DNA of 57,836 bases from Porticoccaceae bacterium (GTDB taxonomy: Bacteria; Pseudomonadota; Gammaproteobacteria; Pseudomonadales; Porticoccaceae): contig JBPPNE010000074.1 in the NCBI GenBank assembly GCA_051306415.1, positions 1 to 57,836 of the forward strand. Direction: 5' to 3'. Within the stretch, counting starts at the first letter, position 1. Every line of letters starts with the position of its first letter. Position numbers and translations under genes: made by a program. Below the pieces are notes generated by a model. The model was not told the DNA's origin. It did not search any database and saw only the letters and a list, made by a program, of their open reading frames with translations. Positions 10,657 through 54,564 of the stretch are shown piece after piece.

Positions 10657-10702
10657 AAAACCTACCTCAGTTATCAGCGATCCGATAGTTTGAGCCGCAG
10701 TG

Positions 10703-12189: not shown

Positions 12190-12228
12190 GACTGCTCCGA
12201 GGGGTTTCGCCCAGTCGTCCGTCGCACT

Positions 12229-12540: not shown

Positions 12541-12577
12541 GGTTTGCTCCTTTGATTGAGTTGAATTGACGATCGGC

Positions 12578-16475: not shown

Positions 16476-16477
16476 GG

Positions 16478-16759: not shown

Positions 16760-16789
16760 AGTGTCTCCTTTGGTCGTTGCGTTGTGGGT

Positions 16790-27140: not shown

Positions 27141-27168
27141 TTTGCATTGCTCCATTTCCGCTGGCGCA

Positions 27169-28044: not shown

Positions 28045-28205
28045 CCTTTCGTCTGCGCCTCGGCCTGACTGAGGCCGTCTGGCGACTCTAGGGCGGGCAC
28101 TCGGTTGATGACGTCGGCGATAAAATGAAAGCCATCCAGATCATTCATCACTGCCGTGTCGAACGGAGTCGAGGTCGCGCCTGCCATTTCCGGGTTCGGT
28201 TTCAT
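28041..28205 (-). pseudogene. second 3'-terminal phosphoketolase remnant
   Basis: [27 protein letters not shown] aligns with [27 protein letters not shown] of Xfp. The rest has diverged. Its stop overlaps the ppk2 start by 4 nt. Confidence 0.6.
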
Positions 28206-28209
28206 AACC

Positions 28210-29556
28210 CTATGCCCTCTCTTCCTCTGCGCACAAAGCAGGCTCGGGTTCGAGCGCTTCGCGCACTTCCAACAACCGCTTTGCGATCCGCTCGCGATCA
28301 TGGGTGGCTTCGATGGTGCGGCCTGCCAATTCGGCCAGCCACTGCACCTGTTCGTGAAGTGCCTGCCGGCGGCGCGGACTGGTCGTGAGTTCGGCGAGGA
28401 CCGCGAAGGCGCTGAGCATGCGCGCCATGATGGCGACATTGCCTGCGGCGCTGCCCCGAATCTGATCGAACGCCTCGGCCAACAGTCCTTCAAAGGTCGG
28501 AACGATGGCAATCACACGCAGTGTTTCTCCCTCGTAACGGTGCGATAACGGGAATTGCCGACAGGCCAGCCGAGTCAGAATCGCCGTCAGATAATCCACG
28601 CACATCACGGCCGTCGAGGTGTCATTAACACCGGGCGAAAGCGCCTTCAATGCCATATCCACGATCTGTCTGATACCGAAAGAAGGATCCTGTTCCACCG
28701 TGCGATGGCGGCTGATGCTGTAAGCCTTATTCAGGGCAGCAATCATCTCCTGATCCGGCGGGTAAGTCAGGGCGAGCGACGCCAACGCAGCATCTTGCAC
28801 AACGAACGCGCCGACGCCGTGCTCCATCTGCACGATGGTCTTCCTGTCCCGCGCCAAGCCCAGGAGGGCATCATTATCCACGCTCTGTATGTAGCCGCTC
28901 GCGGCTGCCGGCACTGCGTACCAGGTCCTCTCATCCAGAGACCGAAGCACCTGGTCCTGGCCCTCATCTTCATCGGGTCCGTGTCCCAGTTTTTCCGGAA
29001 ATAGCCGGTCAATGGCCGCGATGGCTTCACGAGCAACCGAGGCGATGATGTTGGAAGCCTGGATCGACGAGGCGATGTGATGAATGAAATAAATAAGGAC
29101 GCCAACGCCGCAGAGCGCCAGGATAAATGCAAAGAAAACCGCCATGCTTGGCACGAATTCGGTTTCACCGCCGCGAATGGTGCGCAACACGATCAGGCAA
29201 TAGACAAAAGTTCCGCCGAAGATACCGAGTGTGACCTGCGTGACGCGGCTGCGCATGAAGTTCCGCAAGATGCGCGAGGTGTACTGACCCGAAGCCAGAG
29301 TCATTGCCAGCAGAGTCATGGAAAACGTGATACCCATAACGGATATCATCGAACCGGCAAGCGTCGCCAACATCTGGCGCGCCCCTTCCGTCCCGGTCCC
29401 AAACAGGCGTGGCCACTGGTTCATCCATTGGGCACTCCCGGCGGAGTCTACTTCGATCAACGCTGCCGCTAAGACAATACTGACCGCGACCATCAGCAAA
29501 GGCATAAACCAGAAGCTTGCCCGCAGATCGCCCCAAATTTGTCTCAATTTATTCAT
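28210..29556 (-). CDS. DUF2254 domain membrane protein (full length)
   Basis: 448 aa with 4-5 N-terminal TM helices followed by a soluble domain. The family is recalled from the FGIRQ..D.A.KALSPG.ND..TA pattern. The start overlaps the xfp stop by 8 nt. Confidence 0.65.
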
Positions 29557-35679: not shown

Positions 35680-37614
35680 CTATTTTTCCAGTCTCAGCAA
35701 TCGCGCGTTGATGGCCACAATCACTGTACTTGCGGCCATCAACGCTGCACCCACTGCCGGGGTGAGCACCATGCCCCACGCGTAAAGCGCGCCGGCCGCT
35801 AACGGAATCGCGACGACATTGTAGCCGGTGGCCCAGGCCAGATTCTGTATCATTTTCCGATACGTGGCCCGGGAAAGCTGCACGATGGCCACAACGTCCA
35901 GCGGGTTGCTGCGTACCAGAATCACGTCGGCGGTTTCCACCGCCACATCGGAACCGGCACCGATGGCGATACCCACGTCGGCCTGCGCCAGCGCCGGAGC
36001 ATCGTTCACGCCGTCACCGGTCATGGCCACCCTCACCCCGCGTGATTGCACTTCTTTCACTTTGGCGGCCTTGTCCTGAGGCAGAACTTCGGCGAAATAT
36101 TCATCCAGCCCGATCTGATCCGAAACCCACTGCGCCGTCGCTTTGTTATCGCCGGTGAGCATCATGCAGCGGATGTTCATCGCCTTGAGGGCAGCTATGG
36201 CTTGCTTCGCCTCGGGCCGGACGATGTCGGCCAGTGCGATCGCGCCTTTCAACTGACCGTCCACGAGCACAAACACGACCGTTTTGCCCTGGGCTTGCAG
36301 CGGCTCGACGCTTTTGTCGTCAAACGCGATGTTCTGTTCGCGCAAGAAGCCTGGACTGACCACTTTGATGTCTTTGCCATCGACCCTGCCTTCTGCGCCT
36401 TTGCCGGTGATGCTTTTGAAGCCTTCAACCGGTAGCTTCTGCTCGTAAGCATCAGCGATAGCTTTGGCGATGGGATGCTCGGAATTCGCGTCCACCGAGG
36501 CCGCGTATTTGCGCAGCGTGTCTTCGTCGATGTCCTGCGCCAGCAGCAGCGTGTCGGTCACGCCAAAGCGGCCCTCGGTCAGCGTGCCGGTCTTGTCAAA
36601 GATGATGGCTTGCAATTTCCGCGCACCCTCGAAAGCGCCGCGATTGCGAATCAGCAGGCCGTTGCTCGCGGCCAGTGCCGTGGAGACGGCTACTACCAAC
36701 GGCACCGCCAGACCGAGCGCATGCGGGCAGGTGATCACCATCACAGTCACGGCGCGCTCGATGGCAAACGCGAATTCCTTGTTCATGAAATACAGCCAGA
36801 TGAATAAGGTAATGACTCCGGAACTCAGCCCAATGATGGTGAGCCACATCGCGGCGGTATCGGCGAGGTTTTGCGTCTTCGATTTGCTTTCCTGCGCCTG
36901 CTTCACCAGGTTGATGACCTGCGACAAAAACGAATCCTTGCCAGTACCTTTGACTTCGATAGTCAGCGAGCCTTCGCCGTTGATGGCGCCGCCGATGACT
37001 TTGCCGCCGCTCTTCTTGCTGACCGGGGTCGATTCCCCGGTGAGCATCGCCTCATTGACCGAACTCTCGCCGTCGACGATCACACCGTCCGCAGGGATTT
37101 TTTCACCCGGCTTGATCAGCACCCTGTCATCAACTGTCAGTTCGCCCAGCGGCACGTCTTTCACGCTGCCGTCGGGCATGAGTTTGTGTGCATCGGAAGG
37201 CATCAGTTTCGCCAATGCCTCCAGCGCCTTGGATGCGCCCATCACCGACTTCATTTCGATCCAGTGCCCGAGCAGCATGATGTCTACCAGCGTGGCCAAT
37301 TCCCAGAAGAACATCTTGCCGATCAGGCCGAACACCACGGCGCTGCTGTATGCATAAGCGGTGGTGATCGCGACGGCGACCAGCGTCATCATCCCAGGCT
37401 TGCGGGCCTTAAGCTCATCGAACAAGCCCTTGAGGAACGGCCAGCCGCCATACCAGAATACCGCCGAGGCAAAGCCGAACAGGACGTAGGTGTCGCCCGA
37501 GAAACTGATGGCTTCGCGCAAGCCCACCAGTTTTTGCAGCAGCGGCGAGAGAACGAGTATCGGCAACGTCAGGGCCAGCGAGATCCAGAAGCGTTTCCTA
37601 AAATCTGCCGCCAT
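35680..37614 (-). CDS. copB: P1B-type heavy-metal ATPase, CPH (CopB-like, P1B-3) class; N-terminal domain apparently split off by a frame change
   Basis: 644 aa with TCPHALGLAVP (CPH), [10 protein letters not shown] and MTGDGVNDAPAL. In the same frame, 13 codons upstream of the ATG still encode ...PPAGHDHHAH (a His-rich CopB-type remnant) after a TGA at 37654-37656. Confidence 0.85.
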   Translation of the reverse strand: MAADFRKRFWISLALTLPILVLSPLLQKLVGLREAISFSGDTYVLFGFASAVFWYGGWPFLKGLFDELKARKPGMMTLVAVAITTAYAYSSAVVFGLIGKMFFWELATLVDIMLLGHWIEMKSVMGASKALEALAKLMPSDAHKLMPDGSVKDVPLGELTVDDRVLIKPGEKIPADGVIVDGESSVNEAMLTGESTPVSKKSGGKVIGGAINGEGSLTIEVKGTGKDSFLSQVINLVKQAQESKSKTQNLADTAAMWLTIIGLSSGVITLFIWLYFMNKEFAFAIERAVTVMVITCPHALGLAVPLVVAVSTALAASNGLLIRNRGAFEGARKLQAIIFDKTGTLTEGRFGVTDTLLLAQDIDEDTLRKYAASVDANSEHPIAKAIADAYEQKLPVEGFKSITGKGAEGRVDGKDIKVVSPGFLREQNIAFDDKSVEPLQAQGKTVVFVLVDGQLKGAIALADIVRPEAKQAIAALKAMNIRCMMLTGDNKATAQWVSDQIGLDEYFAEVLPQDKAAKVKEVQSRGVRVAMTGDGVNDAPALAQADVGIAIGAGSDVAVETADVILVRSNPLDVVAIVQLSRATYRKMIQNLAWATGYNVVAIPLAAGALYAWGMVLTPAVGAALMAASTVIVAINARLLRLEK

Positions 37615-38357
37615 GTGGGCATGATGGTCGTGTCCGGCGGGGGGGCTTTCGACTCAGCGTCCACGGGTGTTGAGGGCTGTGTGCCCGACGCCGCGTGACC
37701 CTTGTGGCCGCCAGCTGCGGGAGTGGCCGGCGCGGGTTCTGGCTCAGCGGCGGACGCGCCTGGGGCAGCTTTCGGCGCATCGGCTGCGGGCGTTGAAGTC
37801 TGCGCGCCCGGTTCCACCTTGCCCTTGTCTTCGCCGGCAAAGGTATCCCTTACCCAAGCGGTAACCTTGCCAAGTGCCCCCGACTCCTCATGGTCCCTGT
37901 GTTCGTCGGCTGGAGAAGCGGCAGGCGTGGATGCCGGAGTGGCGGCGGAAGCGCCCGTAGGAGGTTTCGGCTCAGCGACAACGAATGTTGACGGCGGCGT
38001 ACTCGGCGGCGCTTGGTCGCTTTTCCCGCCACCTGCTGAAGCGGCAGGCGTGGGGGCGTCAACAGGCGCGTCCTGGGATGGTTTCGGCTCGGCGGCTGCG
38101 GCTGCGGACGGTGGCGCGTCCGGCACCACTTTGTCCTGTGGTCCGTCGCCTGCGGGCTGCTTCCCGCGTTGGTGCACGAGTACCTTGATATCGGCGACGT
38201 TGAGCAGGGTTTCGTCGTAGCGCACCGTGGCGTTTCCCGCAGCGTAATTCACTGTCGCGCTTTCGATACCCGGCACCTCGCCAAACCGCTTTTCCACTTC
38301 GTCCACGGTCAACACCGACAGCATGTCGTGCACTTCAATAACGCTCGTTTTCATCAC
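37569..38357 (-). CDS. Cys-less HMA-like domain protein 1 with a long Ala/Pro-rich tail (possibly the N-terminal part of CopB)
   Basis: The product is MMKTSVIEVHDMLSVLTVDEVEKRFGEVPGIESATVNYAAGNATVRYDETLLNVADIKVLVHQRG plus a ~190-aa low-complexity tail containing GGHKGHAASG. The 3' end overlaps copB out of frame. Confidence 0.7.
   Translation of the reverse strand: MMKTSVIEVHDMLSVLTVDEVEKRFGEVPGIESATVNYAAGNATVRYDETLLNVADIKVLVHQRGKQPAGDGPQDKVVPDAPPSAAAAAEPKPSQDAPVDAPTPAASAGGGKSDQAPPSTPPSTFVVAEPKPPTGASAATPASTPAASPADEHRDHEESGALGKVTAWVRDTFAGEDKGKVEPGAQTSTPAADAPKAAPGASAAEPEPAPATPAAGGHKGHAASGTQPSTPVDAESKAPPPDTTIMPTWRQILGNASGSRWP
37639..37645 (-). other. C7 homopolymer (C CCC CCG in the upstream frame): candidate -1 frameshift or indel site joining ORF 37569-38357 to copB
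   Basis: The plus strand has GGGGGGG at 37639-37645. A -1 shift, or one extra C, turns ...AESKAPP into ...AESKAPPAGHDHHAHMAADFRKRFW (the copB frame). Confidence 0.5.
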
Positions 38358-38797
38358 TCCTCCTTTGCGGCTACGGATGTTGATGGCGGCGCAGCCGGCG
38401 CCGCTTTGTCCTGTTGCCCGTCGCCTGCAGGAACAGCCGGCTTGGGCGCAGCGGCAGGCGCGACCGGGGCAGCTTTCAGCATAGCGGGTTCGGACGGTGA
38501 AGCGGCGGCCGGCGCCGCTTCCAGCGTTGGTTCTACAGCATGCTTATGTGCTGGCTTGTCTTCGCTCTCATCCTTGGCTTTGGATTCGCCTGCGGGCCGC
38601 TTCCCGTGTTGGTGCACGAGCACCTTGATACCGGCGACATCGAGCCGGGTTTCGTCGTAGCGCACCGTGGCGTTTCCCGCAGCGTAATTGACCGTCGCGC
38701 TTTCGACACCCGGCACCTCGCAAATCCGCTTTTCCACTTCGTCCACAGTCAGTACAGACAGCATGTCGTGTACTTCAATAACGCTCGTTTTCATCAC
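38354..38797 (-). CDS. Cys-less HMA-like domain protein 2
   Basis: 147 aa with the same N-terminal 65-aa domain. The tail contains DKPAHKHAVEPT. ATGA overlaps occur at both ends. Confidence 0.7.
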   Translation of the reverse strand: MMKTSVIEVHDMLSVLTVDEVEKRICEVPGVESATVNYAAGNATVRYDETRLDVAGIKVLVHQHGKRPAGESKAKDESEDKPAHKHAVEPTLEAAPAAASPSEPAMLKAAPVAPAAAPKPAVPAGDGQQDKAAPAAPPSTSVAAKEE

Positions 38798-39234
38798 TCA
38801 TCCTTAGCGGCTGCGGGTGTTGACGGCGGCGCAGCCGGCGCCTCATTGTCCTGTTGCCCGTCGCTTGCAGGAGCTGCCGGCTTGGGCGCGGTGGCAGGCG
38901 CGACCGGGGCAGCTTTCGGCACAGCGGGTTCGGGCGGTGAAGCGGAGGCCGGCGCCGCTTCCTGCGTTGGTTCTACAGCATGCATATGTGCGGGCTTGTC
39001 TTCGCTCTCATCCTTGGGTTGGGATTCGCCTGCGGACTGCTGCCCGCGTTGGTGTATGAGTACCTTGATATCGGCGACTTCGAGCAGGGTTTCGTCGTAG
39101 CGCACCGTGGCGTTTCCCACAGCGTAATTGACCGTAGCGCTTGCTACACCCGGCACCTCGCCAATTCGCTTTTCCACTTCGTCCACGGTCAATACCGACA
39201 GCATGTCGGTTACTTCAATAATGCTGGTTTTCAT
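38794..39234 (-). CDS. Cys-less HMA-like domain protein 3
   Basis: 146 aa: MKTSIIEVTDMLSVLTVDEVEKRIGEVPGVASATVNYAVGNATVRYDE.... The tail contains DKPAHMHAVEPT. Confidence 0.7.
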   Translation of the reverse strand: MKTSIIEVTDMLSVLTVDEVEKRIGEVPGVASATVNYAVGNATVRYDETLLEVADIKVLIHQRGQQSAGESQPKDESEDKPAHMHAVEPTQEAAPASASPPEPAVPKAAPVAPATAPKPAAPASDGQQDNEAPAAPPSTPAAAKDE

Positions 39235-39284
39235 ATCGCCTCCTTAATGGTCTTCATATTTGAAATGTTTTGTTACATCTCCGA

Positions 39285-42200
39285 TCATTTCGCGAGCTGG
39301 CCGTTTTGTGCGCGCGCCTGCATAACTTGCGTAAAAGTGTGACTCACCAATTTGCGCAGTTCGCTGACCCACAGCACCACGCTGGCCATCGCCATGCACA
39401 GCAGCCACTGGTCGAACGCCAGCGGCACCGTACCGAAGGCAAGGTTGAGGAAGGCGAGGTTGACGACTGCCACCTGCAACAGCGCCGACAGTGCAACCGC
39501 GCCCCACAGCCACGGGTTGACGAACAGGTGCCTGAACGCACTCGTCGTGTCCGAGCGCGCGTTGAAGCAGGTGAATAAGCTGGTGAAGACGAGTACCGTA
39601 AAACCTGCGGTGCGGGCAGTTTTGAGGTCGTATGCGCCCTCGATCAGCCCACCAGGCAGGTAGATGTCGATCGTCAGCAGCGTCACCACGGCTATCACCA
39701 CGCCGGTTTGGATCACATTCGCCCACATGCGGACGTCAATCAACCGCTCGCTTAAGTGCCGCGGCTTGCGGGCCATGAGGTCGTCAGTGGGCGGGTCGAC
39801 GCCCATCGCGAGCGCAGGCCCGGAGTCGGTGATCAGGTTGATCCACAGGATCTGCGTGGCGAGCAGCGGCAGCACTACTGCGCCGCCAGCGCCTTTGAGC
39901 CCAATCACGCCGGCCCCTACCACGCCCAGGAAGACCGTCAGCACCTCGCCCATGTTCGAGGACAGCAGGTAGCGCAGGAACTTGCGGATGTTGTCGACAA
40001 TGTCGCGCCCTTCGCGCACAGCCTCGACGATCGTGGCGAAGTTGTCGTCGGCGAGGATCATCTTGGCCGCTTCCTTCGTCACCTCGGTCCCGGTCACACC
40101 CATCGCGACGCCGATGTCAGCCGACTTCAGCGCGGGTGCATCGTTGACGCCGTCGCCGGTCATCGCGACGATGTTTCCGTCGGCCTGCAGTGCGTCGACG
40201 ATGCGCAGCTTGTGCGCGGGCGACACCCGTGCGTAGACGGACGTCTTGCGCACTGCGTCGGCGAAGCCCGCGCCGTCCAGCGCGTCGAGCTCCGCCCCCG
40301 TCAGCGCCGGGGCACCGGCCTCCACGATCCCAAGGTCGGCGGCGATGCGTGCGGCGGTGCGCGGGTGGTCGCCGGTAATCATGATCACCCGGATGCCAGC
40401 CCGATGGGCCTCGCGAATGGCAACCGCCGCCTCCTCGCGCGGCGGGTCGATGATGCCCACGGTGCCCACGAACACGAGGTCACGTTCGAGCGATTCCGTG
40501 ACTTGCGGGTCCTCACCGGGGCCGAGGGGGCGGTAGGCCACGGCCAGGGTGCGCAGCGCCGCGTCTGAAAGCGTGTCGACGTCAGCCAGGAGCCGCGCCC
40601 GCCGCGCGTCATCGAGGTCGACGAGTTCCATCCCCACCCGCGCCCGGGTGCACCGTTCGAGTAGGACATCCGGGGCACCCTTGGTGATCACCACAACCTC
40701 GTCGTTGTGTTCGTGGTCCAGTTCGATCGTCGACATCATCTTGCGCTCGGACGTGAACGGGATTTCGCCGATGCGCTCGAAACGCCGCTCGCGCTGCTCG
40801 GTGACGCCGAGTTTGCGCTCGGCCACCAGGAATGCCGCTTCGGTGGGGTCGCCGTGAATCTCCCACTCGCCCCCCGCCCCCTGGCGCAGGTCGGCGTTGC
40901 CGGCCAGGCTGCCGCCGCTGAGCACCGCGATTTGCTCGTCATGCAGCGGTCCGGCAGTTAGCTCAGCGCCTTCGTGCTCCACCCGCCCCTGAGGCGCGTA
41001 CCCCACCCCGGTGACATGGGTGCCGCCCGAGGCGGTCATCACCCGTACGATGGTCATTTCCCCACGGGTCAGGGTGCCGGTCTTGTCCGAGGCGATGACC
41101 GATGCGGAGCCCAGCGTCTCCACCGACGACAACTTTTTGACGATCGCGTTGTGCTTCGCCATCCGCTGCACCCCCAGGGCGAGCACCACCGACAGGATCG
41201 CCGGCAGCCCCTCGGGCACAGCCGCCACCGCCAGGGCCACGCCGAGCAGCAAGACGTGAATGACATCGGCGGCGCTGCGGATATCGGAGATCAGCAGGAT
41301 GGTTCCCACCACCACCACGGCAATGATGACGATCGCTATGCCGAGCATGCGCCCGATGCGTCCGACTTCCTTCTCCAACGGTGTCGGCTCGTCCGCGGTG
41401 GCCTCAAGCATTGCGGCAATCGAACCCATCTCGGTGTCCATCCCGGTCGCCGTGATCACGGCCCGGCCCGCGCCCTGCGCCACAGCCGTGCCCTTGAAGA
41501 CCATGTCGAACCGGTCGCCGAGCGCCGCCGCCTCGCGCAGCGTGGCCGCATCCTTGAGCACGGCTTCACTCTCGCCGGTCAGAGAGGCTTCCTGCACGCG
41601 CAGTGAGGTGGCCTCGATCAGGCGCGCATCCGCCCCGATGGCGTCACCTTCACCGAGCGCGAGCAAGTCCCCGAGCACCAGTTCCGCGCTGGGCACACGC
41701 AGCAACTGTCCGTCACGCATGACCGCCGAGGTTACGGCGGTCATCCGTGCCAGTGCGGCGACGGCGTTCTGTGCCTTGGCTTCCTGCATAAAGCCCAGCA
41801 CCCCATTGAACAAGACAACGATCGTGATAACAATCGCATCCACCGGCCAGCCCTTCGTGCCCTCAATGATCCAGGCGACGAGGGCGATGGCGATGGCGAC
41901 GAGCAGCAGATAAACCAGGGGATCATGGAAGTGCGACAGGAAGCGAAGCCACGCTGGCCGCCGCGGAGCAGAGCGGAGTTCGTTGCGGCCGTTTTCCGAA
42001 AGACGGCGCGACGCCTCCTGTGAAGTGAGTCCGTTTTCGAGGTCTGCGCCAAAAGCTCTCGCTACTTCGTCAGCATTTTTGACGGAAGGATCATCGAGAC
42101 TGCCTGCCTTCTCCATGGTGGATGCGGGAGTCATAGCGGGTGCGGGGGATGGAGGCGGCGCACCCGGCGCCGTGTGGCTCGCGTGGCCGTCGACTGCGGG

Positions 42201-42530
42201 AGCGGTCGGCGCAGGCACAGCAGCTATGGGCGTTGAAACGGAGGCCGGAGCCGCTTCCGGCGTTGGTGCTACAGCATGCTTTTGTGCGGGCTCGTGTTTG
42301 CTCACATGCTTGGGTAGGCGTTCGTCTGCGGACTGATGCCCGCGTTGGTGCACAATCACCTTGATATCGGCTACTTCGAGTAGGGTTTCGTCGTAACGTA
42401 CCGTGGCGTTTCCCGCGGCGTAATTCACTGTCGCGCTTTCGACACCCGGCACCTCGCCAATCCGCCTTTCCACTTCTTCCACACTCAATACCGACAGCAT
42501 GGCGCGCACTTCAATAACGCTCGTTTTCAT
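39285..42530 (-). CDS. P2A-type (SERCA/Ca-ATPase-like) cation pump with an N-terminal Cys-less HMA-like domain (copy 4)
   Basis: ATG at 42530 after AAGGAG: MKTSVIEVRAMLSVLSVEEVERRIGEVPGVESATVNYAAGNATVRYDE, then an Ala/Pro linker, then Cation_ATPase_N-like LTSQEASRRLSENGRNEL. DKTGTLT, PEGLPA, YLLSSNMGEV, NLITDSGPALA and TGDGVNDAPALK are all present. Confidence 0.85.
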   Translation of the reverse strand: MKTSVIEVRAMLSVLSVEEVERRIGEVPGVESATVNYAAGNATVRYDETLLEVADIKVIVHQRGHQSADERLPKHVSKHEPAQKHAVAPTPEAAPASVSTPIAAVPAPTAPAVDGHASHTAPGAPPPSPAPAMTPASTMEKAGSLDDPSVKNADEVARAFGADLENGLTSQEASRRLSENGRNELRSAPRRPAWLRFLSHFHDPLVYLLLVAIAIALVAWIIEGTKGWPVDAIVITIVVLFNGVLGFMQEAKAQNAVAALARMTAVTSAVMRDGQLLRVPSAELVLGDLLALGEGDAIGADARLIEATSLRVQEASLTGESEAVLKDAATLREAAALGDRFDMVFKGTAVAQGAGRAVITATGMDTEMGSIAAMLEATADEPTPLEKEVGRIGRMLGIAIVIIAVVVVGTILLISDIRSAADVIHVLLLGVALAVAAVPEGLPAILSVVLALGVQRMAKHNAIVKKLSSVETLGSASVIASDKTGTLTRGEMTIVRVMTASGGTHVTGVGYAPQGRVEHEGAELTAGPLHDEQIAVLSGGSLAGNADLRQGAGGEWEIHGDPTEAAFLVAERKLGVTEQRERRFERIGEIPFTSERKMMSTIELDHEHNDEVVVITKGAPDVLLERCTRARVGMELVDLDDARRARLLADVDTLSDAALRTLAVAYRPLGPGEDPQVTESLERDLVFVGTVGIIDPPREEAAVAIREAHRAGIRVIMITGDHPRTAARIAADLGIVEAGAPALTGAELDALDGAGFADAVRKTSVYARVSPAHKLRIVDALQADGNIVAMTGDGVNDAPALKSADIGVAMGVTGTEVTKEAAKMILADDNFATIVEAVREGRDIVDNIRKFLRYLLSSNMGEVLTVFLGVVGAGVIGLKGAGGAVVLPLLATQILWINLITDSGPALAMGVDPPTDDLMARKPRHLSERLIDVRMWANVIQTGVVIAVVTLLTIDIYLPGGLIEGAYDLKTARTAGFTVLVFTSLFTCFNARSDTTSAFRHLFVNPWLWGAVALSALLQVAVVNLAFLNLAFGTVPLAFDQWLLCMAMASVVLWVSELRKLVSHTFTQVMQARAQNGQLAK

Positions 42531-42598
42531 CGCAGCTCCTTGGTCGGCTTCATCTTGTGAATGCTTTGTTACATCGCCAATCTCTTCGCAAGCTGACC

Positions 42599-42652
42599 GT
42601 TTTCGAGGTGGCGCCAACCTCGTTATGGCAACTGTGCAACACGCGTGTCGGC
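42599..42652 (-). repeat. 54-nt conserved element immediately 3' of HMA-like gene 5 (copy A)
   Basis: 46/54 identical to 43694-43747 by hand alignment. It contains a hairpin CGAGGT-N7-ACCTCG (42604-42622). The stem is conserved between copies while two loop positions differ. Confidence 0.6.
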
Positions 42653-43138
42653 CTAGCTTTTGTTCGGCGCCGCTTTGTCTTGTTGTTTGTCGCCTGCAGG
42701 AGCAGCAGGCTTCGGCGCAGTGATCGCGGGAGCGGCGGCCGGCGCGGCCGGGGACGATTTCGGTGTTGTTGACGGCGCCGCTTTGTTTTGTTTCGCGGTG
42801 CCTGCGGAAGCAGTGTCCGCTGTGACAGGTGCGTCCGGGGGAGTTTTCGGCGCAGCGGGTGCGGGGGCTGCGGGCGGCGCGCCCGGCGCGGTGTGGCCTT
42901 CGTGACCGTCGCCCGCCGAAGCGGTGGCAGGCGCGGCGGACTCATACCCGCGTTGGCGCACGGCCGACTTGATATCGGCGACCTCGAGTCGGGTTTCGTC
43001 GTAGCGCACTGTGGCGCTTCCCGCAGCGAAATTCACCGTGGCGCTTTCGACACCCGGCACCTCGCCAAGCCGCTTTTCCACTTCGTCTACGGTCAGTACC
43101 GACAGCATGTCGCGCACTTCAATAACGCTCGTTTTCAT
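42653..43138 (-). CDS. Cys-less HMA-like domain protein 5
   Basis: 161 aa, RBS AAGGAGG: MKTSVIEVRDMLSVLTVDEVEKRLGEVPGVESATVNFAAGSATVRYDE.... The tail contains GDGHEGHTAPG. Confidence 0.7.
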   Translation of the reverse strand: MKTSVIEVRDMLSVLTVDEVEKRLGEVPGVESATVNFAAGSATVRYDETRLEVADIKSAVRQRGYESAAPATASAGDGHEGHTAPGAPPAAPAPAAPKTPPDAPVTADTASAGTAKQNKAAPSTTPKSSPAAPAAAPAITAPKPAAPAGDKQQDKAAPNKS

Positions 43139-43241: not shown

Positions 43242-43628
43242 CTAGTTTCCTTTTGGCTTATGTTTCTCGTAGCGCTCCGTATCGCCAGGTCCTTCTTCCC
43301 GAACCATTTCGCACACTGCCAAGGGTGTCGGTGCACCGGCACGCCAAAACCATCCCACGGGGAGAAAGCGATCGGTCTGGTTTGCGATTTCGCGCGTTGG
43401 CTGGAAGGACACTTCCAAACCAGATTCCACCTGCATAACTTCATCGGGAAGCGGCTGGAATTCACCAGTTTGTTCGTCGTGCATGTGCGGCATGAAAATG
43501 CCGAGTCTGTATTCAGACAGTCTGCGAAGCATCTCCTGGACTTCTGGAAGGTGGATTGCCTCCTGAGCAGTTCTCAACGCTTGTGGCAAACCACTGGCGT
43601 TTCCTTGTGAAACATTCGCTATCGTCAT
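43242..43628 (-). CDS. hypothetical 128-aa protein nested in the HMA-like array
   Basis: ATG at 43628 after AGGAG: MTIANVSQGNASGLPQALRTAQEAIHLPEVQEMLRRLSEYRLGIFMPHMHDEQTGEFQPLP.... No family recognised. Confidence 0.45.
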   Translation of the reverse strand: MTIANVSQGNASGLPQALRTAQEAIHLPEVQEMLRRLSEYRLGIFMPHMHDEQTGEFQPLPDEVMQVESGLEVSFQPTREIANQTDRFLPVGWFWRAGAPTPLAVCEMVREEGPGDTERYEKHKPKGN

Positions 43629-43693
43629 GATTCGCTCCTGCTTAGACGTTGTTGACCCATTCGAATTGGCCAGGTCAAGTGCCGAGTGCCCTT

Positions 43694-43747
43694 GTTTTCG
43701 AGGTAGCACCAACCTCGTTGTAGCAACTGCGCAAGACACGTGTCGTC
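43694..43747 (-). repeat. 54-nt conserved element immediately 3' of HMA-like gene 6 (copy B)
   Basis: See 42599-42652. The hairpin here is CGAGGT-agcacca-ACCTCG. Confidence 0.6.
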
Positions 43748-44301: not shown

Positions 44302-44556
44302 TTAGCCGCAGCAGCCGCCCTTGCCTTGCGGTTTTTTCGCGGCAGTGGTGGCATCCACGCCATAGCCCGCGCTCTTCACGGCGGTTTTGAGTTGATTGGG
44401 CGAGGTCAGCCGCTCGTCGTATTGCACCGTGGCTTCGCCGGCCGAGAGCGAGACTTTTACATCACTGATTCCGGGAATCGCCTTCAGTGCGTGCGCTACC
44501 TTGCTGGTGCAACCGCCGCAAGTCATACCGGTTACTTTTAAAATTTCAGTTTGCAT
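44302..44556 (-). CDS. copZ: canonical CopZ-type HMA metallochaperone with a C-terminal GGCCG tail
   Basis: ATG at 44556 after AAGGAA: MQTEILKVTGMTCGGCTSKVAHALKAIPGISDVKVSLSAGEATVQYDE...KPQGKGGCCG. The classic MTCxxC motif is present. Confidence 0.85.
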   Translation of the reverse strand: MQTEILKVTGMTCGGCTSKVAHALKAIPGISDVKVSLSAGEATVQYDERLTSPNQLKTAVKSAGYGVDATTAAKKPQGKGGCCG

Positions 44557-44742
44557 GATGATGTTCCTTTTCAAAGCGTTGAATAAAAACCACGAAGCAA
44601 TACGCGTCAGCCACGGTTCCGTGCGAGTGCCATGCCCACATGACGCACTTTCTCAGCAGAGCGTCCAAGCTTATACACGGAATGCGCAACTCGATCAGTC
44701 GGGTAACGCACATACGGCAAACATTCGCGGGCGCCCCCGGAC

Positions 44743-45027
44743 TCATAGAGCCATTCCATTGATGGCGCTTTTTCGCTGAAGAAAGCGTGGCGATGAGGGG
44801 CAGGAACACGATAAGAGTGACGCGGTGTAGACCGCAGTCAGTAGCCCCGTGTGCCGGGAAACTTGCGTCGCCTCCACTCCCGCACCCAAGAGCCGCTCGA
44901 TCAGACGGGGCGGGCGCGCAAGCACGACGCCATAGCCGACCGACACCGTGAACACGGCGATCATGAGCACGGCCATACTAAATGCAAGCCCACTGGCCGT
45001 ACGTTCGGTATTGACCCTCACAACCAA
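44743..45027 (-). pseudogene. N-terminal remnant of an MFS transporter
   Basis: LAFSMAVLMIAVFTVSVGYGVVLA...LIERLLGAGVEATQVSRHTGLLTAVYT resembles the first two TM helices of MFS efflux proteins (recalled). The frame then degenerates and stops. Confidence 0.35.
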
Positions 45028-46319
45028 CCTCCATCAAATCCCGCTCGCCGCAATCCGCCCGCGATATACCGGCATTTTCGCGTCAGTTCCCACAACAAAC
45101 CGGTCCGGTAATTTTCGATCATCAGGATGATTGGTCCCTGATTGAGGCCAAAATGCCACGGCGAGACCCACCAACCATAAGGATTGCCGGACTTTCCCGG
45201 ATGGGAGGGATTGAAGGAGGCTTTGAAGCCGTAGGAGTTGAACTCGGTCAACTTTTTCTGATGAATGCAATGGTGGAGCGCGAACAGAACGATTTCGGGT
45301 GCGAACGGCAGCGACGCCACCACGGCCCACGGTGCAAGGGTACCGTCGTCGGGTCCGTACGGCACGCCGCGCCCCACGTAATCGAAAAACTGCCGATCGA
45401 TGCCGTTTATTTTGATGGTGTCGGGGCCGGGGCCCTCGCTTGCGGTAATTCCCCAGCAACAGGAGGCATAGTCCTTGAACTTAAGTGGGTTGTCGATCGC
45501 ATACTGTTGTTGCACATAAGTTGCGCGGCGGCTGTTCTCGAAATAGTCAATGCCTTTATCACGCATGAAGGCGTCCTGAATACCACGAAAGTCGATCCAG
45601 ACATGCGAGAGCTGATGGATAAATAGCGGCCCGCCGTACAGATACTCCTGTCCGTAACAGTGCTCCCACTTGTAAGTGGAAGTCCACGCTGCGTAGCTCT
45701 CCTCGGGTAGCGGATAAGTCGGCGAGCCCAGCCCCAGCATATACAACAGCAGCGCCTCGTCGTAGCCTTCCCACCGGTAGTTGAGGAAGCCGCTTTCCGG
45801 CTTCCAGCCGTGCGTCACCGTTGCACCTTGGTTTTGCGCCCATTGCCAATCGGCGCGGCGATAGAGCGCGTCGCCAAGGGTGCGGATTTCAGTCTCGTCG
45901 GCTGTACTGGCGTCGAAATAAATCCCCGCCGTCAACGCGCCGGCCAGCAAAAAAGCGCTGTCCACTGTCGACAGCTCGCATTGCCAGACGCGACGGCCGG
46001 TCTGCATGTCGAGAAAATGATAGTAAAACCCCTTGTAGCCGGTTGCGTCGGGTTCGGGGCCTTGCGGGCTGTTCCAGAAAAAACGCAGCGTCGCAAGCGT
46101 TCGCTCCACCGCCGCGGCCCGCGACATGAATCCGCGTTCGACACCCACCGGGTAGCACGCTAACGCCAGGCCGGTAGCGGCAATGCTGGACGGCCAATCC
46201 GGCGCTGTCTTGTCGACCACCAGCCCGTTGGCGGGATTCGTCTCGTGCAAAAAATAACCGAATGTTTCGCGCTGCAGCTTTTCCAGTTCGGCATCGACGG
46301 TTAGTGTCCTCTGGCTCAT
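45018..46319 (-). CDS. second GH144/DUF3131-like protein (paralog of 441-1739)
   Basis: 433 aa, collinear with copy 1 over the full length. Roughly three quarters of positions are identical by eye. It has no signal peptide and no GH94 partner nearby. Confidence 0.65.
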   Translation of the reverse strand: MSQRTLTVDAELEKLQRETFGYFLHETNPANGLVVDKTAPDWPSSIAATGLALACYPVGVERGFMSRAAAVERTLATLRFFWNSPQGPEPDATGYKGFYYHFLDMQTGRRVWQCELSTVDSAFLLAGALTAGIYFDASTADETEIRTLGDALYRRADWQWAQNQGATVTHGWKPESGFLNYRWEGYDEALLLYMLGLGSPTYPLPEESYAAWTSTYKWEHCYGQEYLYGGPLFIHQLSHVWIDFRGIQDAFMRDKGIDYFENSRRATYVQQQYAIDNPLKFKDYASCCWGITASEGPGPDTIKINGIDRQFFDYVGRGVPYGPDDGTLAPWAVVASLPFAPEIVLFALHHCIHQKKLTEFNSYGFKASFNPSHPGKSGNPYGWWVSPWHFGLNQGPIILMIENYRTGLLWELTRKCRYIAGGLRRAGFDGGWL

Positions 46320-46395
46320 AGTGTCACCTGGCCTGCGACTCTCGGATAAAGTCGCCTCGTGATTCCAACGTTCTTCGGCTCAATCATGGCTTTGC

Positions 46396-46656
46396 TCACC
46401 CGTTGCCCGGCGAGTCCTCGGACGCGCACATATGCTTCGGCAGCATTTCGCCGGTGCAATGGTAGCCGCACTCGTGCACCCTGGCCTTGATGGTCTTCAG
46501 ATCGGTGACGGTTTCGTCGAAGACTACCGTCGCGCTGCCGGCGACGTAATTGACCCCGGCCCGGTGCACGCCCGGGAGCTTGGCGAGCTGCTTCTCCACA
46601 CCACGGGCGCTCAGCGTCGACAGCATGCCACTTACCTCGATCGTAACGGTCTTCAT
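46396..46656 (-). CDS. divergent Cys-less-site HMA-like protein 7 with a Cys/His-rich C-terminus
   Basis: ATG at 46656: MKTVTIEVSGMLSTLSARGVEKQLAKLPGVHRAGVNYVAGSATVVFDE...ARVHECGYHCTGEMLPKHMCASED. The start overlaps the TPM gene stop by 4 nt. Confidence 0.6.
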   Translation of the reverse strand: MKTVTIEVSGMLSTLSARGVEKQLAKLPGVHRAGVNYVAGSATVVFDETVTDLKTIKARVHECGYHCTGEMLPKHMCASEDSPGNG

Positions 46657-47111
46657 GTCGGTCTGTCCTGAAATGCGTGAAGCGTGATCTCTTGGCGCTG
46701 TTTCCCGAAGCCGTACAGGGTTCTGCTCGACGGCCTGATAATGCGCCCCGGCGCCTTGCGGCCAGCTGTGGCGGTCGGAAAGGCGTCCCATTCCTGCGCT
46801 CCCACTTTGGCGTCGATGCCGCGGTCGGCGACGATTTCCACGTCCCGGTCGGCAAGCAATGGATAGATCAGCACGCCGTTGTTGTGTTCGGTATCCAACA
46901 CCCGTAGTTGCGAAAACACCCCGATCGCGCGTTCTCTCGCGGACTGGCCCTTGAACAGCGGCGGGCCGTCCAGCGCACCCTCCACCGCGAAACGGATTTC
47001 GCCAACGTGCGCGTTCTCGCTTGCCTTGATCGCTTGCTCGATCGCGATCAAGGTTTCGCCGGGAAATGCCTGCTCGACCTGCCAGAGGGTCATGCGCATT
47101 CGAGTTTTCAT
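46653..47111 (-). CDS. TPM (TLP18.3/Psb32/MOLO-1)-type phosphatase domain protein
   Basis: ATG at 47111 after AGGTGG. GEIRFAVEGALD...RERAIGVFSQLRVLDTEHNNGVLIYPLLADRDVEIVADRGI is the typical TPM pattern. The last ~45 aa do not look like the family as I recall it. Confidence 0.55.
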   Translation of the reverse strand: MKTRMRMTLWQVEQAFPGETLIAIEQAIKASENAHVGEIRFAVEGALDGPPLFKGQSARERAIGVFSQLRVLDTEHNNGVLIYPLLADRDVEIVADRGIDAKVGAQEWDAFPTATAGRKAPGRIIRPSSRTLYGFGKQRQEITLHAFQDRPT

Positions 47112-47254
47112 TAGCGCCACCTGTGACGACCCGAGTAGGGCCGTTTTCGAGATACGAAACATCCCATGCCAGGCCGATCCCTTATCCGGGCGGATTAGAG
47201 CATCGTCGCGGCTAATCCCTGAACCAGGCCGGGGAAGAACGCCAATGGTTGAAA

Positions 47255-47473
47255 TCAGCCGCCTTCCAGGGTGCAGTCGATGTCCGCCTCGGCTTGCAGC
47301 CAATCCTCCAGATCGTAGCCAGGTCCAAAACCGCGCGCCTGCGCCCGATAGTAAGCCGCATCGGCGATCATCTGCTGTCGATCTTGCATGGACACGCCGA
47401 CGGGTTCCGGCACCTCGCGCTGCGCACCATCCGCCCCGGAGTCGTTTGAAACCATTTTTTTGCCCTCGTTCAT
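47255..47473 (-). CDS. DUF2934 small protein
   Basis: ATG at 47473 after GGAGGA. IADAAYYRAQARGFGPGYDLEDWLQAEADI is DUF2934-like. A paralog lies at 54565-54792. Confidence 0.65.
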   Translation of the reverse strand: MNEGKKMVSNDSGADGAQREVPEPVGVSMQDRQQMIADAAYYRAQARGFGPGYDLEDWLQAEADIDCTLEGG

Positions 47474-47562
47474 AGTCACCGTCCTCCGTTTGAAAACTCC
47501 GCCGACACTGCTGCCGGCACCATTTGTCACCGATCAACGCTTTCATTCATCCAGTTGCTCTT

Positions 47563-48865
47563 GGGCACTTCTATAAATCACGTTTGAACACTGCCGTTTC
47601 TTGGCCAAACTTCATTTTTTGAAATTCCTGGATTGAGCGAGGTTTTTGGCTGCACTCTGCTGCTTTTCTTGCCCAATGGGGCTGTTTTGGGTGAGCATCC
47701 ACCCGCTTTCATGCGGTTGTCCGCGCGATAGGCGCACCGATCCTGTAAAAGTCAAACACCTTCAGACGAATCAGCGTCTCAATGCGCTTGAGGTTGTACG
47801 TCAGATTCATCAATCCCACCCCTGCCTTGGCGCGCGCCACACCGATGCTGCGCAGAAAAATGCCGCCCATGTCGTTTTCCATCGCACCAAAGACATGCTC
47901 GACCCGCGCACGTACCCGTGATTTCTCCGTGTTGCCGAGCTTCTGTTCTTCAGTCAACGGCTTGTTGCGGTAAGCCCGCTCGTGTATCCGGCTCCCGTGT
48001 TGACTGCCTTTGAGGCAGTGCTCTTGCGCGTCCGAGCGGTAGGCGCTGTCAGCCCACACTTCTTTGCCGCCCTCACTGGTCCGGCGCAGTAGGGTGTCGA
48101 GTGCCTGGCTGTCATGCACGCTGGCATCCGTGCAGAGCGCGGCGGTAATGAGTTTGGTGTCACGGTCAATGTTGATGTGGTTCTTGTAGCCGTAGTGATT
48201 CTGTCCGCCTTTCTTCGTCCAGCGGGCATCAATGTCTTTGTGTGCCAGCCTGGCCGGGGTCTTGCCCCACTCGACGGGAACCGCATCGGACTTGATGAGC
48301 GCATTGTGCTCGCGTCCGTTGCGCTGGATGGGCACGGGAACAAAGGTGGCGTCGATGATCTGTCCGCTCTTGAGTTCAACACCCAGATCGGCCAGCGCCT
48401 GGTTCAAACGCGCAAACAGCGGGTCAATCAGTTGATGTTCCTTGAGGGCTTCGCGGAATGCCCACACGGTGCGGGCGTCAGGCACGCTGCCGGAAAGTTC
48501 GAGTCCAAGAAAGCGCATGAATGAAAGCCGGTCGCTGACCTGGTACTGGAGACGTTCATCCGACAGGTTGTGCAGACGCTGGAGTATCAGCAGCTTGAAC
48601 ATGAGCACGCGGCAGAGCGTCTTGCGTCCGGCGGCGCTCTTGCGCTCTTTGCTGTCGATGCGTTCGAGGATGGGTCGGAATATCTCCCAATCGATGGCGG
48701 CGTCAAGGCGTTCCAACGGATCGCCCGCTTCGGAAAGACTGGCGTAACGATTGGCAAGATCAAAGAAGCTGCTTTGCATGGGAGAATCAGGTTGCTCCGG
48801 GTTGGACTACGATTCCGACATTATCCGGCTTCGCACGCTTGGGATGGGGATTTATAGAAGTGCCC
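47563..48865 (-). mobile_element. intact IS5-family insertion sequence (1303 bp) with 17-bp perfect terminal inverted repeats and a 4-bp target-site duplication
   Basis: The inverted repeat GGGCACTTCTATAAATC lies at 47563-47579 and its reverse complement at 48849-48865. Direct repeats TCTT flank it at 47559-47562 and 48866-48869. Confidence 0.9.
47709..48779 (-). CDS. IS5-family DDE transposase
   Basis: 356 aa. DATFVPVP...YGYKNHINIDRDTKLI...DSAYRS...RVRARVEHVFGAMEN are typical IS5/DDE_Tnp_1 motifs. Confidence 0.9.
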   Translation of the reverse strand: MQSSFFDLANRYASLSEAGDPLERLDAAIDWEIFRPILERIDSKERKSAAGRKTLCRVLMFKLLILQRLHNLSDERLQYQVSDRLSFMRFLGLELSGSVPDARTVWAFREALKEHQLIDPLFARLNQALADLGVELKSGQIIDATFVPVPIQRNGREHNALIKSDAVPVEWGKTPARLAHKDIDARWTKKGGQNHYGYKNHINIDRDTKLITAALCTDASVHDSQALDTLLRRTSEGGKEVWADSAYRSDAQEHCLKGSQHGSRIHERAYRNKPLTEEQKLGNTEKSRVRARVEHVFGAMENDMGGIFLRSIGVARAKAGVGLMNLTYNLKRIETLIRLKVFDFYRIGAPIARTTA

Positions 48866-51858: not shown

Positions 51859-54219
51859 TCACAGCCGCACCCGATTCAGGCGCAGCGCGTTGCCGACCAC
51901 GGACACCGAGCTGAACGACATCGCCGCCGCCGCGATGATGGGCGACAACAGGATGCCAAAGAACGGATACAGCACCCCGGCGGCGACCGGCACACCAATA
52001 CTGTTGTAGATGAAGGCGAAGAACAGGTTCTGCTTGATGTTGCTCATGGTCGCCCGGCTAAGTTTGCGCGCGCGCACAATGCCACGCAGATCGCCCTTTA
52101 CCAGCGTCACGCCGGCGCTCTGCATGGCCACGTCGGTGCCGGTGCCCATGGCGATGCCGACCTGCGCCTGCGCCAGCGCCGGGGCGTCATTGATGCCATC
52201 GCCGGCCATGGCGACGAAGCGGCCCTCGGCCTGCAGCGCCTTGACCTTCTGCGCCTTCTGCTCCGGCAACACCTCGGCCAGCACCTCGTCGATGCCGAGT
52301 TTGCCGGCCACCGCCTGCGCCGTGGTGCGGCTGTCGCCGGTGATCATGACGATGCGGATGCCTTCCTCATGCAGGGCGCGGATCGCCTCCAGCGTGGTTG
52401 CCTTGATCGGATCGGCAACGGCGACCAGCCCGGCCAGCTTGCCGTCGACCGCAATGAACATCGCCGTCTTGCCTTCAGAACGCAGGGCCTCGGCGCTCTC
52501 GGCCAAGGTCTCGACGCTGACGCCGAGAGCATCCATCAGCGCCCGGTTGCCGAGCGCCACCGCCTGCTCGCCGATGCGCCCCTGCACGCCCTTGCCGGTG
52601 ACCGACTCGAAGTCGGTGTACTGACTGAGCTGTACGCCACGCTCATCGGCACCCTGGACAATCGCCGCCGCCAGCGGATGCTCGCTGCCGCGCTCCAGGG
52701 TGGCCGCCAGGCCCAGCACCTGCCCTTCTTCAAAGCCTTCCACGGCAACCACGTCCTGCAAGCGCGGCCGCCCCTCGGTGAGGGTGCCGGTCTTGTCGAC
52801 GATCAGCGTGTCCACCTGGCGCAGCGTCTGGATGGCCTCGGCGCTCTTGAACAGCACGCCCATGGACGCCCCCTTGCCGCTGGCGACCATGATGGACATG
52901 GGCGTCGCCAGCCCCAGCGCGCACGGACAGGCGATGATTAGCACTGCCACCGCGTTGATCAGCGCATAGGCCATGGCCGGCTGCGGCCCCCACTGGCTCC
53001 AGACCACAAAGGTGACGACGGCGATCCCCACCACGACCGGCACGAACCAGGTGGCGACCACGTCCACCAGGTTCTGGATCGGCGCGCGGCTGCGGCTCGC
53101 CTCGGCCACCATCTGCACGATCTGCGCGAGCAACGTGTCACTGCCCACCCGCTGCGCCTCGATAACCAGCGAGCCGGTACCGTTGACCGTGGCGCCGATG
53201 ACCTTGTCACCCGCCCCCTTCTCCACCGGAATGGGCTCGCCGGTGATCATGGACTCGTCCACTGCGGAGTGTCCCTCGACCACCACGCCGTCCACCGGCA
53301 GCTTCTCGCCCGGCCGCACGCGCAGGCGATCACCGATCTGCACCTGCTCCAGCGGTACGTCCACCTCGCTGCCGTCAGCCGCCAGCCGGCGAGCCGTCTT
53401 GGGGGCGAGGCCGAGCAGCGCCTTGATGGCGGCGTTGGTCGAGCTGCGCGCACGCAGCTCCATGACCTGCCCGAGCAGCACCAGGGTGACGATGACCGCC
53501 GCGGCCTCGAAGTAAACAGCGACCTGTCCTGCCTGGCCCCGGAACGAGTCCGGGAAAATGCCCGGGAATAGCGTGGCGACCAGGCTGTACAGGTAGGCCA
53601 CGCCGACGCCCAGCCCGATCAGCGTGAACATATTCAGCTTCCAGGTGACCAGCGAGCGCCAGCCGCGCACGAAAAACGGCCAGCCGCCCCACAGCACCAC
53701 CGGCGTGGCCAGGGCAAGTTCCAGCCACATGCCCAGCGCGTGCGGCACCAGCGCCTCCATCGATACACCGGGAATGAGTCCACCCATCGCCAGAAAGACC
53801 GCGGGAATGGTGAGCACGACGCCGACCCAGAAACGCCGGGTCATGTCCTTGAGTTCGGGGTTCTCCTCCTCTGCTGCGGTGATCTGGAGCGGCTCTAGCG
53901 CCATGCCGCAGATCGGACAGTTGCCAGGATGGTCCTGGCGTACCTCGGGGTGCATGGGGCAGGTGTAGATCGTGCCGCCGGCGGCAGGCAGCGTATCCGG
54001 CGCGGATTTCCGCTGCGCGCCCTGGTGGTCGTGGCCGGCAGCGCCCAGGACATGCCCATCTGGCAAGGTGCGCGTGCCGACAAAGGTCGCGGGATCGGCC
54101 ACAAAACCGTCCCGGCAGCGCGTGGAGCAAAAATAATAGGTATGCCCGGCGTGGTCGGCGGTGCCCGCGGCTCGCGCCGGCTCCACCTGCATGCCGCATA
54201 CGGGATCTGTTGCCATCAT
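51859..54219 (-). CDS. copA: P1B-1 (Cu+/Ag+) ATPase with N-terminal YHS/TRASH-like and YTCPMHP metal-binding modules
   Basis: ATG at 54219 ([12 protein letters not shown]...[12 protein letters not shown]; [26 protein letters not shown]). [38 protein letters not shown] and MSFSSVSVV are present. The ORF-track start at 54564 is rejected. Confidence 0.9.
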
Positions 54220-54539
54220 GTGCCTTGACTCCTTGCCGGCGACACCCGGTCCGCTGCGAACCGGCGACCGCCGAGCCCGTTGTAAATCCAGGCGAACACT
54301 GCGCCCACCCCGAAGGTGGCAACGACGAGTCCCGCCAGCGCGCAGAAAAAGCCACTCCAGCCGAACCGCAATCCCGCCGCGGGCAATAAAGGCTTCAGAT
54401 CGAGCCCGTGTGTCAAGACACTGAACGAGGCCAGCGTACCAGCGGGCCACGCCACAACCGCAAACGTGCAGATTCCGTAAAACACCGCAGCGGTGATCGC
54501 CAGCGCCCCGCCGGTCTGCCAGGGATTCAGTCGGTGCAT
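54216..54539 (-). CDS. small 3-TM membrane protein (DUF5676-like, recalled)
   Basis: 107 aa: [23 protein letters not shown]...[27 protein letters not shown]. The stop overlaps the copA ATG (ATGA). Confidence 0.45.
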
Positions 54540-54564
54540 CGCCTATTCCTCCCGGCGCTGGCAT

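Follow-up and report, generated by a model that had tools for sequence, protein, structure and literature searches.

How does a pump with a core like that of SERCA come to carry an HMA domain, which a Pfam-based survey takes as the domain setting the P1B pumps apart (PMC7911474)? The question is raised by one P-type ATPase gene of a Porticoccaceae bacterium (GenBank assembly GCA_051306415.1, contig JBPPNE010000074.1). We analysed a 57,836-nt stretch of this contig, which we call the window; coordinates refer to it, and (−) marks the minus strand. In this gene a Cys-less HMA-fold head and an Ala/Pro-rich linker precede a P2A-like pump, an architecture that an earlier note on the same DNA had pointed out. 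On balance we favour, with some reserve, the reading that a Ca2+-type exporter belonging to a stress island gained a thiolate-independent regulatory or docking head from an adjacent copper-pump cluster.

The gene and its pump core

The pump open reading frame (ORF; 39285–42530, (−)) is one unbroken frame of 1081 amino acids with its ATG at 42530; in the ORF listing the frame remains open 5′ of this ATG as far as a TTG at 42617. A Shine–Dalgarno motif, AGGAG (42536–42540, (−)), can be read from the sequence with a 5-nt spacer to the ATG. We looked in the sequence for a comparable ribosome-binding site at the internal ATG of Met139 (MEKAGSLDDPS), the point where HMA-less orthologs start, and found none. 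No stop codon lies between the head and the core. Because the ORF is continuous, the AGGAG precedes the first ATG and not Met139, and the fusion recurs in relatives, the head, linker and pump are a single gene; the downstream start that the earlier note had considered is not borne out. Nor is the architecture due to chance, since the head scores 150 bits against a profile of the six module copies in the window (itself included) and the same architecture occurs in 66 independent clusters. An Rfam scan of the whole window returned no matches, and a promoter and terminator scan of the minus strand gave nothing above the shuffle expectation.

The core comprises residues 139–1081 plus the stop codon (39285–42116, (−)), and Pfam, NCBIfam and PDB scores all mark it as P2A-type. 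Pfam finds Cation_ATPase_N (PF00690; residues 152–215, 72.5 bits), E1-E2_ATPase (263–460), Cation_ATPase (545–629), a HAD/Hydrolase domain and Cation_ATPase_C (PF00689; 887–1062, 171.5 bits). Cation_ATPase_N together with the C-terminal block of transmembrane helices (TM) 7–10 corresponds to type II topology, and ten long helices are seen in an AlphaFold2 model of low confidence. The catalytic motifs are all present and align to LMCA1: TGES (318), DKTGT (482), KGAP (617), MITGD (717) and TGDGVNDAP (791). The phosphorylation motif DKTGTLT spans residues 482–488 (D482; 41067–41087, (−)) and TGDGVNDAPALK spans residues 791–802. There is no CPx motif in the pump, and neither SPC nor PCP in TM4, whose sequence is VPEGLPA. 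Each motif quoted in the earlier note (PEGLPA, DKTGTLT, TGDGVNDAPALK, YLLSSNMGEV and NLITDSGPALA) was found as described, as was the absence of CPx.

We assigned the pump to a class by ranking profile scores and PDB scores. The highest NCBIfam scores were to the two IIA models, IIA2 (PMR1-type, 622.8 bits) and IIA1 (SERCA-type, 608.8 bits), followed by IIB (463.5), IID (458.7), IIC (439.2), IIIB (397.8) and IIIA (394.8); the heavy-metal IB model (TIGR01525, ATPase-IB_hvy) gave 210.7 bits, below its cut-off of 346.25. In the PDB, LMCA1 (557 bits) ranked above SPCA1 (502) and SERCA1/2 (∼485–490), with the next classes at or below ∼382 bits (a non-SERCA Ca2+-ATPase at 382, Na,K-ATPases at ∼375). 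By these rankings the pump is P2A-like (SERCA/LMCA1/PMR1-like) and not P1B, as the earlier note had it, and none of the measures applied places it in P1B. Its scores stay under the equivalog cut-offs curated for the two IIA models (798.3 for IIA2, 703.4 for IIA1), so the P2A-like label is one of rank and does not make it a curated equivalog. A Mycolicibacterium homolog of the pump has 61% identity.

The residues expected to bind the ion are mostly those of SERCA. In TM4, PEGLPA (residues 439–444; 41199–41216, (−)) holds E440, which we take to be the equivalent of SERCA E309. Alignment to SERCA1a in the PDB places N859 and E862 of the TM5 segment YLLSSNMGEV (854–863; 39942–39971, (−)) on N768 and E771, and N898, T901 and D902 of the TM6 segment NLITDSGPALA (898–908; 39807–39839, (−)) on N796, T799 and D800. 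Six of the seven SERCA Ca2+-ligand positions in TM4, 5, 6 and 8 are kept (E440, N859, E862, N898, T901 and D902), and the TM4–6 residues, all oxygen donors, show no or almost no variation among 56 relatives, fused and unfused. The seventh, the site-I residue Glu908, is replaced by Ser984 in TM8 (FTVLVFTSLF; 39573–39602, (−)). Hence the assignment of SERCA Ca-site residues in the earlier note stands for TM4–6 and fails at TM8; on this alignment site II would be intact and site I short of one carboxylate. The core is predicted, from these ligands, to be an exporter of cytoplasmic Ca2+, possibly of both Ca2+ and Mn2+.

The best solved relative, LMCA1 of Listeria monocytogenes (PDB 6zhf; aligned over residues 164–1067), shares the 10-TM type II topology, DKTGT and TGDGVNDAP, but it has neither an N-terminal HMA domain nor a linker. 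It also has Ala in TM5 where this pump has the Glu771 equivalent, and Arg in TM8 where this pump has Ser984; the Arg is presumably Arg795, which occupies site I. The TM5–TM6 segment alone is closer to SERCA, its scores being 49.9 bits to SERCA and 35 bits to LMCA1, and carries an 11-residue insertion in the TM5–6 loop. SERCA1a and SPCA1, second-best by profile, have the same E309, N768, E771, N796, T799 and D800 set; the pump differs from them in this insertion, in Ser for Glu908, in being bacterial and in its Cys-less HMA head. The P1B copper pumps (CopA, ATP7B, CopB/P1B-3 and the CPD-type P1B-3a) resemble it in having an HMA-fold domain at the N-terminus, whereas here CPx is missing, the Cation_ATPase_N and _C domains are present and the head is without CxxC.

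The Cys-less head and its copies in the window

The head (residues 1–66; 42333–42530, (−)) matches Pfam HMA (PF00403) over residues 6–62 with 37.0 bits, above the gathering cut-off of 24.8. It reads AMLSVLSV where GMTCxxC would be expected, so that SxxS stands in the place of CxxC, and it has no His-rich site. The whole pump protein has only three Cys residues (627, 988 and 1045), none of them in residues 1–150. An AlphaFold2 model of residues 1–75, built with 79 homologs, has a mean predicted local distance difference test score (pLDDT) of 81 and a β1-α1-β2-β3-α2 order, the final strand of the β-α-β-β-α-β fold not being modelled. The Foldseek matches of this model in the PDB were all HMA domains: the ATP7B metal-binding domain (TM-score 0.73, root-mean-square deviation (rmsd) 2.0), MerP (0.72), the YAM domain of YajR (0.68–0.70, rmsd 1.6–1.7) and CopZ (0.64–0.67). 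The YAM domain (Escherichia coli; PDB 2ru9 and 4q2m) is likewise a Cys-less ferredoxin/HMA-like fold on a transporter that does not handle heavy metals, but it is C-terminal, sits on a major facilitator superfamily protein, has no detectable sequence relationship to the head and is itself of uncertain function. In a model of the full-length protein the head has pLDDT 72–83 and the linker ∼25–30, and the remainder is unreliable.

An exhaustive search of 1.84 billion representatives (clustered at 50% identity) returned 224 clusters of the module at E ≤ 1e-10, mostly free-standing proteins of 85–400 amino acids. The fused pumps were not among these matches, probably because clustering at 50% merges them with unfused pumps; a word-index search with the 70-residue module gave only matches of ≤123 amino acids, which are uninformative on architecture. 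In 146 aligned module copies, the first Cys position of GMxCxxC is Ser in 134 and the second is Ser in 112 (Ser or Thr in 131). The loop takes the form A/D-M-L-S-V-L-S/T and not the canonical one, Cys exceeds 5% in no alignment column, and most positions are 80–99% conserved. With no Cys column anywhere in the family, these alignments exclude a Cu(I)-thiolate site from the module as a whole. The earlier note's suggestion that the module is not a Cu(I) binder therefore holds as regards a thiolate site; its argument from the P2A location is weakened, since the same module is found on CPH and CPD copper pumps and the location says little about which metal, if any, is bound.

The linker (residues 67–138; 42117–42332, (−)) is Ala/Pro-rich and disordered. 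It is 72 residues long, shorter than the ∼110 given previously, with 25% Ala, 21% Pro and 7% His, and ranges from 36 to 111 residues across orthologs. It contains the non-conserved sequence DGHASH. We considered a conserved metal site in the linker (a DGHxGH motif) and rejected it, as only 13 of 50 fused orthologs retain the His pair. With this pair so seldom kept and no conserved ligand set evident, we found no evidence for the substrate-delivery role that the earlier note had entertained.

Where the head came from is suggested by the rest of the window, which holds six near-identical Cys-less modules, all (−) and with 83–96% DNA identity, starting at 38354, 38794, 39234, 42530 (the pump head), 43138 and 44215. 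The earlier note had numbered the pump head as copy 4; the full count is these six, a seventh that is divergent, and a single canonical CopZ (44302–44574), which has MTCGGC. Directly upstream of the pump lies a free-standing paralog of 161 amino acids (42653–43138, (−)), a Cys-less HMA domain with an Ala/Pro tail. Directly downstream lie three further tandem copies (37569–39234, (−)), the last of which (ORF 37569–38357) is joined across a frameshift to a CopB-like P1B pump (35680–37614, (−); CPH at residue 296; TIGR01511, 630 bits). An intact fusion of the head to a CPH pump is found in P0241. The frame changes in a C7 run (37639–37645, (−)), where one added C would give ...ESKAPPAGHDHHAHMAADFRKRFW...; an error of sequencing, a pseudogene or a phase-variable switch might each account for it.

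The repeated unit is larger than the module. Positions 38918–39307 match 42214–42603, and the match extends 73 nt 5′ of the start codons, so the ribosome-binding site lies within the cassette. The leader of the downstream cassette (39235–39307) shares sequence with the final codons of the P2A pump, and insertion of this cassette may therefore have remodelled the C-terminal tail of the pump. On other contigs a P1B pump of 854–886 amino acids comes after the fused P2A pump; it too has this head, along with a CPD motif. Examples of such CPD-motif (VIACPDALGLATP) pumps lie at 13225–15789 in locus L082 and 14145–16805 in locus L084. CPD in place of CPC or CPH marks the little-studied P1B-3a subtype (Cubillas et al. 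2017; PMC5552934).

The divergent seventh module (46432–46656, (−)) lies in ORF 46316–46855 and scores 71 bits to the module profile. It ends in HECGYHC, closely precedes a glucoamylase gene and overlaps a TPM-domain ORF (46653–47546) at the latter's end. L084 has an unannotated 180-residue ORF in the same place relative to glucoamylase, a likeness of position only.

Distribution, selection and genomic setting

Relatives of the pump were taken as the 120 best matches (90%-identity clusters) in a collection of 5.8 billion proteins; the window protein makes 121. A full head on the same pump was present in 65 of the 120 (66 of 121 with the window protein), at 74–90% overall identity, so that P2 pumps with HMA-like N-termini, which the earlier note had wished to see sought, do exist. 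The fused sequences are mostly betaproteobacterial; named sources include Methylobacter svalbardensis and a Rhodoferax sp., both annotated only as ‘cation-translocating P-type ATPase’. Two heads have an internal deletion (P0069 and P0095), further proteins start within the linker (P0056/57, P0077, P0097 and P0105), and the remaining orthologs start at a MAKAGRLDDPS-type N-terminus with no head. In a GTDB sample of one genome per species, the module was on the pump in two of the best 80 loci (L001, Rhodoferax; L002, Betaproteobacteria), and the fusion is therefore narrow within the pump family. Family members from Alphaproteobacteria, from Actinobacteria (55–69% identity) and from Polaromonas and Sinorhizobium plasmids were always headless.

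Codon analysis of six fused genes gave ratios of non-synonymous to synonymous divergence (dN/dS) of 0.16–0.54 for the head, 0.14–0.19 for the core and 0.34–1.09 for the linker. The head dS was mostly like that of the core (0.97 versus 0.92 for the window against L084), with one exception (0.14 for the head versus 0.52 for the core in L001 against L081). By this measure the head is shown to be under purifying selection. When the 121 cores were placed on a neighbour-joining tree, pumps with and without the head were interspersed and at least 16 parsimony state changes were required, a count that applies to close relatives, among which some ‘unfused’ states may be gene-calling effects. Taken together, the dN/dS and dS values and the tree indicate a head that is kept by selection where present, yet has been repeatedly lost or swapped.

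The same data bear on the strongest competing explanation, that the fusion is a near-neutral by-product of a recombination-prone cassette that lands before any adjacent gene and has no role in the pump. The interspersed tree would fit this, as would the truncated heads (P0069 and P0095) and linker-only forms (P0056 and P0077) on cores 80–85% identical to the window pump, the variable length and high dN/dS (up to 1.09) of the linker, a repeat unit that brings its own leader and ribosome-binding site, and Ca-site residues that are the same with or without a head. However, the head combines a low dN/dS with a dS that mostly equals the core value and reaches ∼1.0, which means that it has stayed intact for as long as the clade has been diverging. 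Conservation of module positions also exceeds 90% across 144 representatives at 50% identity, and a free-standing paralog recurs directly upstream of the fused pump in six of eight contexts (the window, L001, L081, L084/85, L089 and L091). We regard neutrality as a minority explanation, to be taken seriously but clearly less probable than the reading that we favour.

A second competitor starts from the neighbours. It holds that the pump exports a transition metal (e.g. Cu2+, Zn2+ or Mn2+), or is switched by one through non-thiol ligands in the head or linker, in concert with the adjacent P1B pump. An HMA-headed P1B pump is nearby in three of the eight distinct contexts (the window, L082/83 and L084/85), and copper genes encoding a multicopper oxidase, CusCBA, a MerR-type regulator and Csp occur in L082–L085; DGHASH in the window linker could be added to these. 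Set against them, the TM ligands are all oxygen donors, as in SERCA and in unfused orthologs outside copper islands; the linker His pair is poorly kept and the head offers neither Cys nor a His-rich site; and five of the eight contexts have no P1B pump within 8–10 kb or to the contig end. This explanation appears unlikely to us.

The setting of the core points to a stress island, as the reading that we favour would have it. An unfused ortholog with 91% identity (P0053) lies directly before genes for acetate kinase, phosphoketolase, a histidine phosphatase and phosphoglucomutase. In the window, the same four lie downstream of the CopB/HMA block and beyond, on a side that also has PPK2, an MscS-BON channel, NhaA (22349–23908) and an F-type ATPase operon. 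In the low-oxygen lxa locus of Burkholderia, acetate kinase occurs with a cation-transporting ATPase that has been likened to a DosR-regulon pump (PMC3721108). The lxa pump, BCAM0318, and CtpF of the Mycobacterium tuberculosis DosR regulon are P2-type pumps in a comparable stress or fermentation setting; the likeness drawn here is one of context, and no HMA head is described for either in the literature that we found.

Several further features of the window were recorded. The F-type operon (11299–16475, (−)) encodes gamma, alpha and a b/delta fusion with DUF2934, is split by an eRF1-like gene (baeRF family 3; 12578–13732) and may be an N-ATPase-type alternative ATPase of the stress island. A small conserved protein between the HMA-like genes (43242–43739, (−)) has no Pfam or NCBIfam match. 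Its homologs, with 63–70% identity, are at 13646–14029 in L084/L085 and 278–685 in L086 (Polaromonas plasmid pPNAP02); it adjoins HMA-headed P1B pumps in two other loci and may belong, so far unrecognised, to the copper-pump cluster. A third P-type ATPase (51859–54564, (−)) is a CPC-motif P1B pump whose N-terminus carries YHS and HMBD domains and not HMA; it adjoins a DUF411 protein (54850–55308, (−)), and insertion sequence elements (47709–48779 and 56678–57487) flank the region. Two duplications were seen, one of glucoamylase (441–1739 versus 45018–46319; 76.5% identity over 1.3 kb) and one of 650 bp (25735–26383 versus 28179–28827; 83% identity) between the MscS-BON and DUF2254 gene regions. 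The ORF at 26463–27260 (−), which overlaps the PPK2 ORF (27169–28044), is probably a gene remnant: its match to class-I fructose-bisphosphate aldolase (349 positions) is confined to the first ∼80, and a full aldolase lies at 9631–10755.

Origin and role of the head

HMA domains of P1B pumps act as regulatory domains. In the history that we favour, the core would be native to a low-oxygen or stress island with acetate kinase and phosphoketolase, and this P2A pump would have come to adjoin a copper-pump cluster. Recombination with that cluster would then have supplied the head and linker as a cassette, complete with leader and ribosome-binding site. Lacking thiolates for Cu(I) binding, the head would serve as a tethered regulatory or docking domain. 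It might contact the cytosolic domains of its own pump, as the metal-binding domains of P1B pumps do, or pair with the free-standing paralogs, and would tune pump activity rather than carry substrate. A regulatory role is plausible by analogy with the P1B metal-binding domains and with the YAM domain of YajR.

A number of points weigh against this account. The transported ion is deduced from ligand identity alone, and one of those ligands, the site-I carboxylate, is Ser984 here; the pump falls short of both IIA equivalog cut-offs. The full-length AlphaFold2 model (mean pLDDT 44.6) is too poor to judge docking of the head on the core. As the head has been lost, truncated or regained at least 16 times among close relatives, the pump can do without it, and its spread could in part be neutral. 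Finally, co-location with copper genes in three of eight contexts leaves room for a transition-metal link.

A more far-reaching proposal gives the head and its Ala/Pro tail a wider function, as a portable, metal-independent interaction module, common to pumps of several subfamilies and to soluble paralogs, that would couple or co-regulate Ca2+-type and copper pumps within a single membrane assembly through head-to-head contacts. We hold this to be improbable, on a par with the transition-metal explanation. If true, it would mean that a bacterial HMA fold has been repurposed for protein–protein signalling instead of metal transfer, and that the module would be the first regulatory N-terminal domain common to different P-type ATPase classes (P2A, CPH-P1B and CPD-P1B). 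The last possibility, two genes or an assembly artefact at the junction with the pump beginning at Met139, could appeal to the matching start of HMA-less orthologs and to an error- or change-prone region in which the nearby CPH pump is cut off from its own head by a homopolymer frameshift, but is highly improbable given the stop-free frame, the lack of a ribosome-binding site at Met139 and the same unbroken ORF in 66 independent clusters, which draw on assemblies of NCBI, JGI, ENA and Logan.

Our full-text literature search, whose coverage is incomplete and leaves absence unproven, found no account of an HMA domain on a P2 pump. The HMA head on a P2A pump is unusual and apparently undescribed, although the sequences are public under generic annotation. 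The same module occurs on a SERCA-like pump, on two copper-pump lineages and alone, even though HMA is taken as a P1B signature. Automated annotation could therefore miscall such pumps as copper ATPases; the JGI label of one ortholog is ‘magnesium-transporting ATPase/copper chaperone CopZ’.

For the biology of these transporters, the acquired regulatory or docking head that we favour offers a testable case of domain shuffling across P-type ATPase subfamilies, albeit one of narrow distribution and labile history. It documents an N-terminal domain that is shuffled together with its ribosome-binding site, as a cassette, between adjacent transporter genes. Close relatives with a full, a truncated or no head amount to a natural experiment on a tethered HMA fold free of a metal site, which is relevant to the long debate over N-terminal metal-binding domains as regulators.

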